The notes below the pieces were generated by a model, which saw only the letters and a program-made list of their open reading frames with translations, was not told the origin of the DNA and made no database searches. Of a stretch of DNA of 64,000 nucleotides, positions 3,152-52,978 are shown one piece after another. Made by a program: the position numbers and the translations under genes. Every line of letters starts with the position of its first letter. Within the stretch, counting starts at the first letter, position 1. Origin of the DNA: Eledone cirrhosa (lineage: Eukaryota); NCBI GenBank assembly GCA_964016885.1, contig OZ024741.1, positions 294,066,001 to 294,130,000 on the forward strand, in the 5' to 3' direction.

Positions 3152-3690
3152 ATTAGAATTGGTGCTCTGAAATAGCGATATATATATGAATGTATATATA
3201 GTGTATTTTGCAATACACTGTATGCTTAATTAGAAGCATTTTGAATGTCATACGCTATTGTTTTAAAGTAGCGACATTGTCGCTTACTTACATTTTTGGC
3301 AGGCAAGGGGAGATAAGTTGACAGCGCTGTTTCGTACTGATTGGTACTTGTGAAAACTCAGTACTCTCCCTGTCTGCCGAAAATTAGGTACGTTGGATTC
3401 TTATAGATTTCCAGTAACAATCAGAAACTGATTTTACAGAGCGGTCGCCGGCCCAGCAGAAATGGAAAATTAGAATTGGTGCTCTGAAATAGCGATATAT
3501 ATATGAATGTATATATAGTGTATTTTGCAATACACTGTATGCTTAATTAAAATTATCTCCCCCTGCCTGCCGAAAATTTAAGTAAGCGACAATGTCGCTA
3601 CTTTAAAACAGTAGCGTATGGCCTTTGAAATGCTTTTAATTAAGCATAGAGTGTATTGCAAAATACACTATATATACATTCATATATATA
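3152..3690. repeat. Direct plus inverted (fold-back) repeat between (TA)n tracts
   Basis: 3152-3231 repeated directly at about 3469-3549; about 3553-3690 is the reverse complement of about 3180-3316. Confidence 0.85.
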
Positions 3691-4035
3691 TATATATATA
3701 TATATATATATATATATATATATATCTGTATTTATAAATATCTATCTATATACATATATATATATATATATGTATATATATGTCTCTCTCTCTATAAATA
3801 TCTATATGTGGAATTTGTAGTTTACTTGAAGCATTGTATATGGTATAAACATTCGAAGTTGGAAAACCATGACAATGCAGGTATGGACAGAGAAAAGTTA
3901 AAACGCAAGAAACAGGGTTTGTTTTTTTACCTTAATTTATTCATATGTCCTCATATTTCGAGATTAATATCTCTTCATCTAAGGAAAATAAAGGAACTAT
4001 TCCAGTGTCCAATTTGGCTTGCATACATATATATA

Positions 4036-4458
4036 GGGTATATCTCCAAGATGAAGGATCATTGCCTGCCCAGTACCACACTGTACAGCAAACTCCCCAC
4101 TGACTGTGATAACAGGGTTGCTCCAAAGTAGTGATTCAAGGACTATTTGAAAAAATCCCTTGGTGCCTGTCACATCTACCATAACCAGTGGTCCAACCTA
4201 GCTGAGAACTATGATGACTTGTGTCTCAATATAAAGCATGCTATCTCTTCCTGCGAAAACACTGACAGATCCATCCTTAAGGACAAAAGGAACAGGAGGA
4301 AGAACCACAATACCAAGTCATCAAACTCTAACCAGACTTTCATCCGCAGTTGCTGTGCCTGCCTGTCCTGCATTGGCTTAAACAGCCATGAATGAGCCTG
4401 CAATCAACATGGACCACCCTCTTCATAATCTTTGTTTGCGAAGCCAAGCTCTCATGAT
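4036..4458 (+). mobile_element. RTE (BovB-like) LINE 3' fragment, degenerate
   Basis: FKDYLKKSLGAC...CACLSCIGLNSHE C-terminal zinc-knuckle-like end with stops; starts after (TA)n. Confidence 0.7.
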
Positions 4459-4726
4459 ATATACACACATATATATATATATACACAAATATATATTCAC
4501 TATGAATACTGCTTGATTATGGCTGACAATTGATACACCCAGGACACCATAGTGAAATACCAATATATGGAACATTACATTATGTAACATTCCCTCCTTA
4601 TCTTAATTTATATTCCTTTGAAGTTCCGATGAGCCGCTCTGTTTTTAAATATGTTTTTAAATATGTCAATTATTTTCAACTGAACCAAATCAATAATGAT
4701 ATATAGTCATTTGATCCAGAAATATT

Positions 4727-4810
4727 ATACGGGGTCGATAAAATAATGTACCAGTAATGTACTGGGTAATTGCTGACCTTGTGCCTAAAGTAGAAACAAT
4801 TATTATTATT
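4727..4810 (+). mobile_element. Nin/Deu SINE 3' fragment
   Basis: TACGGGGTCGATAAAATAATGTACCAG...GTAGAAACAATTATTATT. Confidence 0.8.
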
Positions 4811-5275
4811 AATATTATTATTATTATTCTCTACATTCCTTACATCAAACTAAAATATGTTGACAATCTTTTAATGTCTTCCTTGTGAAATTTGTGGTCT
4901 TGTTTTGCTTAACTAATGAATATTTCCAGCTCTGAGCACCTAACTTCTGCATGAACCCAGCCACCTAGCTGCTTTCTACTGCATATTGCACATTGAGCAC
5001 ATGCCTTTACGCTATGGCTTCTAACTAATTCACCAATCTCTCCTCTCCTATCTCCATCTCTCTCTTCAAGATTGGTTACTCTTGAATTGTGTACCCAAAT
5101 ATATATATATATATATATATATATATATATATATATATATATATATATATATATATATATATATATATGTATATATATATATACATATTCCCAATATATA
5201 TATATATGCATATGTGCATATATATGTGTGTGTGTGTGTGTGTGTGTGTGTGTGTGTGTATAAATATATATATAT

Positions 5276-6053
5276 AAGGAAAAAATTAGAAATAAGAGGG
5301 ATCAGATGTTGTTTACTCGAGAGAAGGCTACGTTGGTACGGTCACGTGATGCGCATGAAAGACGACAGCTGTATAACAAAGTGCAGGGCAATAAAGATAG
5401 ACGGTAGCCACGGAGTAGGCAGACCCAGAAAAACATGGGACGAGCTGATAAATTCCGACCTCACACGCTTACACCTCTCCAAGACAATGTCACTGGACCG
5501 AGACCTTTGGCGGTACTCAGTAATAGAGAAGACCCGCCTTACCTAAATACAAAGTAAAAACCTACTACAGTCAGTAGGCACCTCTATCAAAACACACCCC
5601 CGTCCCACCACCTCCACCCCACCCACACCGCCCCTTTCAATGTAAAGTTATGTTGGTCCCACAACATCCAGGCCGAAACAAATGAGATCGTGTAGGTGTC
5701 ACGACAAAAAACACACAGTCCACGCTGTAAATGTGGCCGTGTAGGCAACACGGTAAAAACCTCCCAGCCCCACACTGTAAATGTGGTTGGTGTTAGGAAG
5801 GGCATCCAGCTGTAGAAAACCCGCCAGACAGTCCACGCTGTAATGTGGCCGTGTAGGCAACACGGTAAAAACCTCCCAGCCCCACACTGTAAATGTGGTT
5901 GGTGTTAGGAAGGGCATCCAACTGTAGAAAACCCGCCAGACAGTCCTATGCGAGCAAGACAACCACTCTTGCCTCAAGTGGGAAAACCCCCGTCCAAACC
6001 CATGCAAGCGTGGAACACGGACGCTAAACCTGATGATGATGATGATGATGATG
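5276..6053 (+). mobile_element. RTE-A 3' fragment with tandem duplication in 3'UTR
   Basis: [15 protein letters not shown]...EKTRLT stop; about 5717-5829 duplicated at about 5829-5944; (ATG)n tail. Confidence 0.9.
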
Positions 6054-6211
6054 ATATATATGCATGTATATAGATCTATATATATGTTTATATATATATA
6101 TATATATACATATATATATATATATATATATATACACATATATATATATATATATATATATGTATATATATATATATATATATATATATATATATATAAA
6201 TATATATATAT

Positions 6212-50520: not shown

Positions 50521-50532
50521 ATGATATATGTA

Positions 50533-51011
50533 TCATCATCGTTTAACGTCTATCTTCCACACTAGCATGGGTATATCATCATCATCATCATCATCATCAT
50601 CGTTTAACGTCCATTTTCCACGCTTGCATGGGTTTGGATGGGAGTTTTCCCACCTGAGGCAAGATTGGTTGTCCTGCTCGTATAGGACTGTCTGGCGGGT
50701 TTTCTACGGCTGGATGCCCTTCGTAACACCAACCACGTCTACAGTGTGGACTGGGAGGTTTTCTCCGTGTTACCTACACGGCCACATTACAGCGTGGACT
50801 GTGTGTTATTTTGTTGTGACACCTACACGTCTGGCGGGTTTTCTACTACTGCATGCCCTTCCCAACACCAACCACGTTTACAGTGTGTACTGGGAGGTTT
50901 TTACTGTGTTACCTACACGGCCACATTACAGCGTGGACTGTGTGTTTTTTTTTTTTTGTTGTGACACCTACACAACCTCATTTGTTTCAGACTGGATGTT
51001 GTGGTACCAAC
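50533..51011 (-). mobile_element. RTE-A mini-tail (50533-50572) and 3'UTR fragment with internal duplication (50576-51011)
   Basis: Reverse complement of the preceding 3'UTR; tail-to-tail arrangement. Confidence 0.88.
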
Positions 51012-51297
51012 ATATATATATAAGTACTGTGTGTGTGTGTGTGTATATATTTGTCTAGTTAATTTCTATGGGCTAAAAGGAATGACTATATAAATTTTAT
51101 CTGACTGTTCATCGCGGAAAATAGTCTGTATTATTTGTCTATTATTTCTTCATAGTTAGATTTTAAACTTATAGCCTCGTTTAAATGATTATTTATGAGG
51201 TTGATTTCTATGGACTAGGGAGAAGAAAGACTGTGTATATTTTATCTAATAATTCTTCAAACTTGCAATTTTATATATATGTATATATATATATAAG

Positions 51298-51782
51298 AAA
51301 ATATCAGTGGATGTGAAAAGGAAAAAGGAAAAGAGAGCTCAATCAAGTATGAGAGCTGATATATTATATTATATATTTATATTCATACATGGAACAAAAT
51401 CGCTAACTAAGGTTCGAAGGCTGAATTTTTACCATCTCCCCAGATTTTGAGAGCAATCAAATTTGTGACCTAGTTTTGATGAGTTTGAAGATATCATTAT
51501 AAATATACCATACTAAACGTTTATGAAAATCTAGTATAACGAAGGGAAATAACTCAAAGATATGAAACTGAAAATGGCTATGTTAGTGTTAGTGTGTGCA
51601 CAAGATAGCAGATGTATGGTATTATGAGGAAGTATGTAATACAGAGTTATTCAAAATTGAGCCTTGGAAATGTATGTAGCGCTTTTGTTCCATGAATGAA
51701 CATGAATAAATATAATATATCAGCTCTCATACCTGATTTTGTACTATTTTCCATCTTTCTTTTTCACATCCACTGATATTTT
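51298..51782. repeat. MITE-like element with diverged inverted arms of about 105 bp within (TA)n
   Basis: AAATATCAGTGGATGTGAAAA..TATGAGAGCTGATATATTATA versus TATAATATATCAGCTCTCATA..TTTTCACATCCACTGATATTT. Confidence 0.8.
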
Positions 51783-52486
51783 ACTATACACACACATATA
51801 CACACATATATATATATATATATATATATATATACCTCAAGAAAACATCCGCTCGCATTACCGTTATGTCTTCCTGTTTTCTAAACGCAATATTTGATCA
51901 TAATTTTTCTCAGTTTCAGATGATCCCTCTTAGGATGAAAGCAAAAATTCATGGCGTAAACTTTTAATCCATACTAACAATTGAACATTTACTATGTAAA
52001 CCATCTCTTCTCAATTTTTCTGTGATATTTGAGGTATTTCAATATATCATACATCATATCTACCTTGAGTTTTTCTGCTTCAGTTTGATGCATTCCATCT
52101 ACCTCCATTCATCCATGCAGACTGTATACTGCCTCTACACTAAATATCAGACTTTGTTTGATAACTTTTATAAATGAATGCATAATCATGTATGTATGGT
52201 GTGAGTGCATATGTGTGTGTATGTATGGATAGATAGATATTTATATATGTATCATCATCACCATCGTCATTTGAACATCAGCTTTCCCTGTTAGCAAGGG
52301 TTAAAGGGTTATCTCTCTCTCTCTCTCTATATATATATATATATAATAATGAGTTGATGGACCCAGCATATTTATCAATGCCAGTTGTATCTCAGTGTAC
52401 TCAATAGGCAATATAGGATACATTCCCAGAGTATACACATAGTTATTCGCTTCAATACAACACACGTAAAAAAGGTGCCTATAATA

Positions 52487-52512
52487 GTTCTCCGACTCGA
52501 GTTTCGGCCACG
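52487..52512 (-). ncRNA. 3' half of hammerhead motif, truncated by (TA)n
   Basis: GGCC-GAAAC-TCGA-GTC-GGAGAAC; palindromic stem III and GUC triplet. Confidence 0.45.
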
Positions 52513-52595
52513 CTTTATATATATATATATATATATATATATATATATATATATATATATATAAGAAAATTTCGCTCTACAAGGCTGAATACAAA

Positions 52596-52978
52596 AAATG
52601 TAATCTGTGTTTATCGAATATTAATAATAACATTCGATTTGTTTGCAATTATGCAAACAAGCCTCAATTTTATAGCCATGTCAGTTGAATGAACACTTCA
52701 TTCTTGCTCTTGTGTTGGCATGTGAACAGTACTGCAGACACTAATATTTCTGGGTATCACCCTTCATCAGTACAACTGAGTGTTCACCTGCCAAATGAAC
52801 TGTACTGATGAAGTGTGATACCCAGAAACATTAGTGTCTGCAGTTCTGTTCGCATGCTAATACAAAAGCAAGAATGAAGTGTTCATTCTACTGACATGGC
52901 TATAAAATTGAGGCTTGTTTGCATAATTGCAAACGAATTGAATGTTATTATTAATATTCGAAAAACTCAGATTACATT
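52596..52978. repeat. Fold-back palindrome, arms about 178 bp
   Basis: 52596-52774 versus 52801-52978, about 12 mismatches by eye. Confidence 0.95.
52797..52846 (+). ncRNA. Type I hammerhead ribozyme motif (mirror copy on minus strand about 52729-52775)
   Basis: GAACTGTA-CTGATGA-AGTGTGATACCCA-GAAAC-ATTAGT-GTC-TGCAGTTC; 8-bp stem I, GUC site at 52836-52838; left arm retains stem II GGGT/ACCC. Confidence 0.75.

Follow-up and report, generated by a model that had tools for sequence, protein, structure and literature searches.

A stretch of 64,000 nt of the Eledone cirrhosa genome (contig OZ024741.1, positions 294,066,001 to 294,130,000; hereafter the window) carries ten palindromes, at 3152, 6429, 23144, 24818, 27815, 30688, 36603, 40413, 51298 and 52596, by which they are named here. 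The locus raises the question of which elements left them and whether they share one insertion mechanism. An earlier note proposed many Penelope-like element (PLE) or retrozyme families with a common fold-back mechanism, and not a single MITE family. Seven of the ten palindromes agree with this proposal and three do not fit a PLE explanation. A mechanism common to the seven was retained, although it is an already published PLE hallmark and looks more like priming at two ends than fold-back. The preferred reading, with a probability of about 0.85, is that seven palindromes are PLE stubs from two-ended copying and that the other three are a Helitron and two local fold-backs.

Inverted arms and palindrome density of the window

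Inverted arms were confirmed at all ten sites, and none of three local shuffles gave a palindrome. With microsatellites masked, the window contains 8 palindromes with arms of at least 45 nt, or 9 when cut in 900-nt chunks. Other flanks contain 49 palindromes in 371 kb (8.5 per 64 kb), a count that leaves out loci that overlap or come from the window itself, together with three long-bodied families; the palindrome density of the window is ordinary for the genome. (TA)3 was present at one or both ends of 37 of these 49 palindromes, compared with 266 of 943 random segments. The ten palindromes were said to have no evident shared sequence, and a single 31-nt AT-rich match (E 6e-4) was found among them. 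Their description as symmetric units did not hold; most carry a tail of 26-131 nt on one side. The dispersed family behind each of nine palindromes (all but 23144) was searched in the genome, and the copies analysed are the best-scoring 40 per search and not a random sample.

Seven palindromes (3152, 6429, 24818, 27815, 30688, 51298 and 52596) are likely cut-short PLE insertions. Their families show a variably 5'-truncated stub, an inverted copy and a short tail at one end, often in a (TA)n target. The one-sided tail is about 26-36 nt long in four families; two others have tails of 60 and 131 nt. Longer relatives of four families (6429, 27815, 30688 and 51298) lead into a GIY-YIG endonuclease (EN). 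The other three (3152, 24818 and 52596) are protein-free tandem-unit families of retrozyme type, in which no ORF was reached.

Families leading into an endonuclease

The 27815 palindrome (27815-28318, plus strand) is composed of a tail-less inverted arm (27815-27997), a forward arm (28005-28187; arm identity 98%) and a 131-nt tail (28188-28318), with (TA)n on both sides. Among tail-selected copies (29 loci), the 5' ends were scattered over 156-1500 nt and pile up at hammerhead stem I, which would mark an RNA 5' end. An adjacent inverted arm was present in 10 of the 29 tail-anchored copies, the remainder being plain truncations or interrupted, and in 8 of 10 inverted copies it ends 131 nt short of the 3' end. 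L210, a duplicate of L209, was left out of the tail and junction analysis. The endonuclease was found in longer relatives (L212, L215, L216 and L217); it shares 41% identity with an RT+EN protein of 715 aa that carries RWK, DKT and CxCx5C motifs, and its pieces were not recognised by Pfam (best E 0.24). RWK and DKT are known only from the homolog P0001 and not from the family's own RT, while L216 possesses the CxCx5C linker and lacks CCHH. As described in parts of PMC8557442, the Hydra clade of PLEs resembles this family in the CxCx5C linker, the absence of CCHH, CxxC and CxH near the EN end, the (TA)n target and the hammerhead, and has RWK and DKT in common with its nearest database protein. 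By motifs rather than by an RT tree, 27815 appears to be a Hydra-clade-like PLE. A SINE copy with a 5' snap-back is situated at 28336-28616.

The 6429 palindrome is the 3' end of an RT/GIY-YIG PLE on the minus strand (6368-6919), with matching arms at 6432-6590 and 6770-6916, a tail-less inverted arm at 6770-6919 and a tail of ~60 nt at 6368-6428. Its relatives contain RT YVDD and GIY-YIG; the Pfam score for GIY-YIG was over the cut-off (24.6 bits), and RVT_1 (E 3.9e-5) was below it. The 30688 stub (30655-30874, minus strand) has a ~33-nt tail at 30655-30687, followed by the palindrome (30685-30874) with its axis at a self-complementary AGATCT-type site. The family has a 3' region of ~1.5 kb along with a GIY-YIG-like motif at the C terminus, and its coding link is a GIY-YIG EN motif in one contiguous copy, L369. 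The 5' ends of tail-selected copies were scattered over 91-270 nt (30 loci). An adjacent inverted arm was present in 18 of these 30, the rest being plain truncations or interrupted; it stops 36-37 nt from the 3' end in 12 of the 18, and at 0 in 2, which have tails on both ends. The old 51298 stub (51292-51788, minus strand; arms 51292-51429 and 51653-51788, identity 82%) has both arms reaching the full 3' end, and its relatives share the CxCx5C linker with the Hydra clade (parts of PMC8557442). The EN motifs of 51298 and 30688 were seen by eye in decayed frames, are 29% identical to the 6429 EN, and gave no match in Pfam.

Tandem-unit families

The 52596 stub (52563-52979, minus strand) belongs to a tandem unit of ~440 nt, with a ~28-nt tail at the left and arms at 52589-52774 and 52801-52986 (identity 92%). 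An adjacent inverted arm was present in 6 of 15 tail-anchored long loci, the others being plain truncations or interrupted. The 3152 stub (3152-3691, minus strand) is formed by a 317-nt tandem unit with a direct repeat at 3154-3235 and 3471-3552. Its arms (3178-3319 and 3550-3691, the latter tail-less and inverted) are 92% identical, the tail at the left end is ~28 nt, and (TA)n lies on both sides; a first look gave 2344 candidates in the genome. The 24818 stub (24822-25067, plus strand; palindrome 24822-25034) belongs to an old 260-nt tandem-unit family with a right-hand tail of ~32 nt. The (TA)n target preference of the PLE-type families is weak in it. Having neither ORF nor hammerhead (0 of 20 loci), 24818 was filed by layout alone as likely PLE-type.

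A protein-free tandem unit together with a complete type I hammerhead, which would place a family with the retrozymes, was found in 52596; the catalytic box is missing in 3152 and no motif was found in 24818. Parts of a report on animal non-LTR retrozymes (bioRxiv 10.64898/2026.07.22.740005) describe type I hammerheads, as in 52596, and protein-free tandem units, here of 260-440 nt. In contrast to these, the catalytic box was lost in 14 of 14 readable copies of 3152, 24818 possesses no motif, and the insertions here are mostly inverted stubs of one or two units.

Hammerhead motifs

A hammerhead or its remnant was found in five families (3152, 6429, 27815, 51298 and 52596) and none in 24818 and 30688. 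The suggested enrichment inside palindromes was borne out for complete motifs (8 of 33, with 1.1 expected), and a complete hammerhead lies inside only 6 of the 49 flank palindromes. Of the positions proposed earlier, three were correct. The one at 52797 is a complete type I motif present in both arms (52734-52776, minus; 52797-52846, plus), of which the minimum-energy folds do not form the hammerhead fold. The one at 6585 is a minimal type I motif (6583-6627, minus), with CUGAnGA, stem II and GAAA present in 13 of 20 loci. The one at 27880-28000 is a type I motif (27870-28003, minus) with stem II of ~100 nt, complete in 18 of 31 loci, while in the window copy stem I is cut short at the palindrome axis. 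The site at 3485 had been misplaced; the remnant is at 3315-3364 on the minus strand and is a back half (stem II, GAAAC and the GUC site) without the CUGAnGA box. This back half was found in 14 of 20 loci, with CUGAnGA within 75 nt upstream in 0 of 14. At 30765-30790 no support was obtained, as this is the family's 3' region without CUGAnGA. A decayed hammerhead absent from the earlier list was found at 51396-51480.

By motif search, predicted ribozymes of complete type I were present in relatives of 52596 (22 of 32 loci) and 51298 (2 of 20) as well. A regular expression with short stems missed motifs with a long stem II; a descriptor found these but does not detect a minimal stem III. Among the 150 of 217 Rfam matches listed at E up to 5, no hammerhead was present, only microsatellite-driven miRNA matches. 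The hammerhead is situated 170-330 nt from the element 3' end. Its closeness to the junction is explained by this position, which falls within the part retained by stubs. It is not required, since two families lack it and one was amplified without its core; hammerhead cleavage is likewise unnecessary for the PLE reaction according to parts of PMC11167929.

A probable Helitron and two probable local fold-backs

The 36603 palindrome (arms 36603-36656 and 36751-36804) lies in an old terminal-inverted-repeat element of ~430 nt (36228-36660), the ends of which may resemble pogo/Tigger TIRs. A stretch of ~55 nt of its right end recurs as a mirror image (36751-36804) on the other side of a (TA)n tract, and the whole feature spans 36228-36804. 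The 23144 palindrome (23190-23382), mostly (ATT)n, is a low-complexity local inverted duplication with (AAT)n/(ATT)n arms around a ~30-nt stub. This central stub resembles the 3' end of an (ATT)n-tailed retroelement, and one other copy of the centre was found, in L222. Both palindromes are likely local fold-backs at microsatellites.

Judged from its sequence, the 40413 palindrome (arms 40406-40592 and 40669-40855, identity 95%) is likely part of a fixed non-autonomous Helitron (39894-40847, plus strand) copied whole. The element runs from TC to CTAG, flanked by A and T. Its own 3' end is repeated in inverted form as a fixed copy of ~190 nt, and the loop measures 76 nt. Across 51 loci, 46 left ends were identified, 45 of them with A before TC, and 35 right ends, all with T after CTAG. 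In insertions into (TATG)n and into a 10-nt repeat, the repeat is restored as A|T without target duplication. L269 and L270, already among L036-L059, were left out of the end and arm-variant counts. RepHel-coding loci are abundant in the genome. Of 3704 candidates 150 were listed; 40 coding loci from this listing gave no coding partner with 40413 ends, and the only match was a neighbouring non-coding copy. Non-autonomous Helitrons, as described in parts of PMC4778049, share the 5'-TC, CTAG-3', A/T flanks and absence of duplication, whereas 40413 has the ~190-nt inverted copy instead of only a ~19-nt hairpin.

Formation of the inverted arm

A (TA)n-rich target would be cleaved on both strands by PLE proteins, and at each broken end a copy of the element RNA's 3' end would be made, bringing two short DNAs together head to head. 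One copy would begin at an outer start site and carry the tail; the other, tail-less, would have its start 26-131 nt upstream, at an inner site. The two would join at microhomologies or self-complementary sites. Priming at two ends is the putative step, and the protein-free tandem families (3152, 24818 and 52596) would be mobilised in trans. Axis sequences of 27815 were of 20 different kinds among the 21 parsable of 31 whole-palindrome copies. Variants mirrored in both arms exceeded the permutation expectation in 27815 (36 vs 5.1), 52596 (23 vs 7.5), 30688 (20 vs 5.7), 3152 (15 vs 3.3) and 6429 (5 vs 0.8). They make up 21-37% of variant calls in these five families against 6% in Helitron 40413, which shows a small excess (8 vs 2.6, P 0.0025). 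As junctions differ between copies and the arms share copy-level variants, the mirror was likely rebuilt at each insertion, probably by two-end priming. The match of arms within a copy could also stem from conversion between them.

An unlikely alternative keeps the PLE origin and derives the inverted arm from snap-back, in which one cDNA folds and is then extended. It agrees with the variants common to both arms and with the many axes at which the sequence is self-complementary (AGATCT in 30688) or microhomologous (overlaps of 1-19 nt), and the SINE copy described above indicates that the process does occur here. However, the tail-less arm extends 71-140 nt further 5' than the tailed arm in six copies (L290, L144, L147, L152, L024 and L029, with L019, at 28 nt, left uncounted), which snap-back of the tailed strand cannot produce, though uneven arms could stem from later deletion at the palindrome centre. 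Some copies (L280, L288 and L153) have a tail at both ends, and purified PLE protein extends both strands (parts of PMC11167929). Breaks at (TA)n cruciforms repaired by the host, with the adjoining sequence mirrored and no element-specific enzyme, are an improbable origin for the set; this suits 36603, 23144 and a mirror of 25 nt spanning a (TA)n tract in L206, but leaves unexplained the inverted arm ending at the same base in most family copies and the head-to-head orientation with (TA)n outside.

It is very improbable that these are ordinary TA-targeting families of MITEs or foldback DNA transposons, with each palindrome copied whole. With whole palindromes as queries, 40 of 40 matches were full-length both for 27815 and for 40413, the ends and loop of 40413 are fixed, and TA-targeting Mutators exist in plants (PMC4486113). 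The apparent fixity of 27815 and 30688 vanished with tail-alone queries, bodies continue into GIY-YIG ORFs, and the ends of 40413 are those of a Helitron, not terminal inverted repeats. The families did not resolve into ordinary TIR MITEs, having asymmetric ends and variable lengths; the set of terminal inverted repeats, fixed length and target duplication was not found, and terminal repeats occur only in the host element of 36603. The MITE reading is refuted for 27815, 30688, 52596, 6429 and 51298. Fixed-structure Crypton-like DNA elements, once considered for 27815 and 30688, were likewise an artefact of whole-palindrome queries, and a literature search on that idea gave no match. Assembly or library chimeras are extremely improbable. 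No public contig or RAD read spans the whole 27815 copy; yet the arms of one palindrome differ by 2-18%, family-specific end points recur across many contigs, and the join of tail-less arm and (TA)n, with other axes, is present in short-read contigs from three runs (one sample, possibly the source).

Relation to known elements and significance

The layout and insertion mechanism of the PLE stubs are already known. EN+ PLE insertions carry an inverted 5'-truncated copy and, at one end, a tail of 30-40 bp, and their targets are (TA)n (parts of Craig et al. 2021, PMC8557442); in the reaction both strands are cut and extended, and two start sites bound the tail (parts of Frangieh et al. 2024, PMC11167929). 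Likeness to the elements of these two sources extends to partial tandems, the type I hammerhead near the 3' end and RT plus GIY-YIG. Compared with them, the tails of 6429 (~60 nt) and 27815 (131 nt) are longer, stem II of 27815 is ~100 nt, the stubs are very short (about 8 per 64 kb), and 30688, with a C-terminal EN, has no hammerhead in its 3' 1.5 kb. These families may already stand in published family lists. The value is mainly in annotation, as palindromes which a repeat finder would label MITEs are PLE stubs.

According to PMC5625713, the proportion of loci that can form long dsRNA is exceptionally high in octopus, which also shows the strongest hyper-editing; the available parts of that source give no repeat annotation for octopus. 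PLE stubs are a concrete candidate source of coleoid long dsRNA. It is a tentative and rather doubtful suggestion that two-ended PLE insertion seeded near-perfect hairpins of 100-500 nt, and that ADAR hyper-editing draws its dsRNA mainly from such stubs and not from distant repeats that pair. Their total, hundreds of thousands, is a rough extrapolation of 8.5 per 64 kb over 3.0 Gb. As an editing footprint in copies, A>G substitutions did not clearly exceed T>C (72 vs 71, 25 vs 17 and 19 vs 38). The families are large natural samples on how PLE integration finishes, by one cDNA folding back or by two cDNAs meeting. If two-ended insertion is true, the junctions of the many copies would make the second, unsolved half of PLE integration readable.

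Genomic distribution and structure of the palindromes

All ten inverted repeats claimed in the earlier note were found in the sequence of the window, C2:294066001-294130000, and, as claimed, they share no sequence; each is named here by its window position. After microsatellite masking, 8-9 palindromes with arms of at least 45 nt were detected in the window and none in local shuffles. The identical scan of 371 kb flanking other loci in the 3.0-Gb genome, a non-random sample of DNA adjoining repeats, gave 49 palindromes (8.5 per 64 kb), so the density of the window is typical. 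Two further long inverted pairs at 50285-50815 and 41759-42666, overlooked earlier, each consist of a common dispersed repeat present twice in opposite orientation.

Nine of the ten palindromes were searched genome-wide, giving 140 to 5282 first-look candidates per query, of which the best 40 were scored. Each of the nine is a copy of a repeat. Seven families show a common layout in which (TA)n is followed by an arm that stops short, the junction, the reversed arm, a tail and again (TA)n; the tail, a short 3' segment, is confined to one side of the junction. Whole-palindrome queries gave an apparently fixed junction which vanished with tail-only queries in families 27815 and 30688. By tail-only query, the forward part of 27815 varied from 156 to 1500 nt and an adjacent inverted arm was present in 10 of 29 copies, 8 of which had it ending 131 nt short of the 3' end. 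For 30688 the inverted arm was present in 18 of 30 copies and ended at 36-37 nt in 12. A common SINE-like repeat is represented at 28336-28616 by a 5'-truncated copy that ends 5' in a ~30-nt snap-back and sits within (TA)n beside the 27815 tail. Another repeat, ending in AGTAGAAACAATT, is frequent at ATT-rich spots inside the 3' regions of Penelope-like elements (PLEs; loci L217, L220, L278, L315 and L368); in two cases it lies at stem I of the 27815 hammerhead.

Coding relatives

Longer relatives of family 6429 possess RT (YVDD) and GIY-YIG. Those of 27815 contain an endonuclease whose linker is of the CxCx5C type and which lacks CCHH; it shows 41% identity to a 715-aa protein with RWK, DKT, RT motif and an endonuclease at the C-terminal end. 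CxCx5C, absence of CCHH, RWK and DKT are the Hydra clade marks in section 11 of PMC8557442; the first two match the 27815 relatives and the last two the 715-aa homologue. The same linker occurs in family 51298, in decayed frames. Family 30688 (30655-30874, L368, L369) also belongs to the PLEs, with the endonuclease C-terminal and the 3' 1.5 kb devoid of a hammerhead motif; its copy L369 extends from a GIY-YIG-like frame, not recognised by Pfam, across 1.5 kb as far as the tail. Families 52596, 3152 and 24818 form tandem units of ~440, 317 and 260 nt, respectively, with no ORF in the sequence reached. Two other open frames in the window, 6950-8533 (minus, 528 codons) and 1630-2394 (plus, 255 codons), presumably represent pieces of LINE reverse transcriptase.

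Origin of the mirrored arms

Sharing of variants was far greater between the two arms of one copy than between arms taken from different copies (36 vs 5.1, 23 vs 7.5, 20 vs 5.7, 15 vs 3.3 and 5 vs 0.8), indicating that each insertion generates its own mirror from a single source. The arms would be built by two cDNAs, each primed from one of the two target ends, or by snap-back of a single cDNA. In six copies the tail-less arm is longer than the tailed one, extending 5' by an additional 71-140 nt, and three copies carry the tail at both ends; therefore two-ended priming is favoured over snap-back, although later deletions could imitate the longer tail-less arms. Two-ended priming agrees with the behaviour of the purified PLE protein in PMC11167929, which cleaves AT-rich DNA on both strands and extends each of them, initiates at two positions bounding the tail and does not require hammerhead cleavage. 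PLE insertions with an inverted truncated copy, a tail of 30-40 bp on one side and (TA)n targets are described in PMC8557442.

Hammerhead motifs

Both arms of 52596 carry a complete type I hammerhead motif; these were the only descriptor matches in the window, against 0-1 across 10 shuffles. Family 27815 has a complete type I hammerhead with a ~100-nt stem II in 18 of 31 loci, a similar one is complete in 2 of 20 relatives of 51298, and 6429 has a minimal one in 13 of 20. Family 3152 retains the back half, with CUGAnGA missing in all 14 readable copies. This retrozyme-type family (3315-3364, L060-L079; >2000 candidates) was amplified after loss of that box. No hammerhead was found in families 24818 and 30688.

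The proposed tie between palindromes and hammerheads was borne out in part: of 33 complete motifs in the flanks, 8 fall within palindromes (1.1 expected), but a complete motif was present in only 6 of 49 palindromes. As the motif lies only 170-330 nt from the 3' end, 5'-truncated insertions keep it, which makes it more of a passenger than a cause. Family 27815 may be an exception. The breakpoint falls on the 5' strand of stem I in six tail-selected copies (L203, L205, L208, L218, L224, L225) and in most whole palindromes, and 20 distinct axis strings occur among 21 parsed copies. One reading of this pile-up is an RNA start at that strand; another is AT-rich target microhomology.

A probable Helitron and probable local fold-backs

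Palindrome 40413 forms the 3' portion of a non-autonomous Helitron (39894-40847) whose family measures 0.83-1.4 kb and has fixed ends and loop. A precedes TC at 45 of 46 left ends and T follows CTAG at 35 of 35 right ends, matching the Helitron ends described in PMC4778049 (TC...CTAG between A and T). Its arms share few variants (6%), as expected if the element is copied whole. The family has ~1000 first-look candidates (94-97% identity); its 3' end is duplicated in inverted orientation over ~190 nt, a fixed feature of the family. Among 40 RepHel loci, none qualified as its coding partner. Near-identical RepHel domains recur at ~100-170 kb steps on a few contigs (C20:3.5-5.2 Mb, C27:13.0-15.5 Mb, C19 and C16), a spacing as in a large tandem array. 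At 36603, an old terminal-repeat element has 55 nt of its end mirrored across a (TA)n tract, and 23144 is composed mostly of (ATT)n.

Implications

Abundant near-perfect dsRNA is tied to octopus hyper-editing in PMC5625713, the available text of which does not name the repeats. No paper connecting Penelope palindromes, retrozymes or hammerheads with editing in octopus or other cephalopods turned up in the literature collection searched. Repeat copies showed no A>G excess, which is uninformative on editing of host transcripts.

The earlier guess of many Penelope-like or retrozyme families sharing one insertion mechanism was largely right and its palindromes are real, but the PLE signature that seven of them show was already known and their density is ordinary. 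The families are further cases of known kinds.
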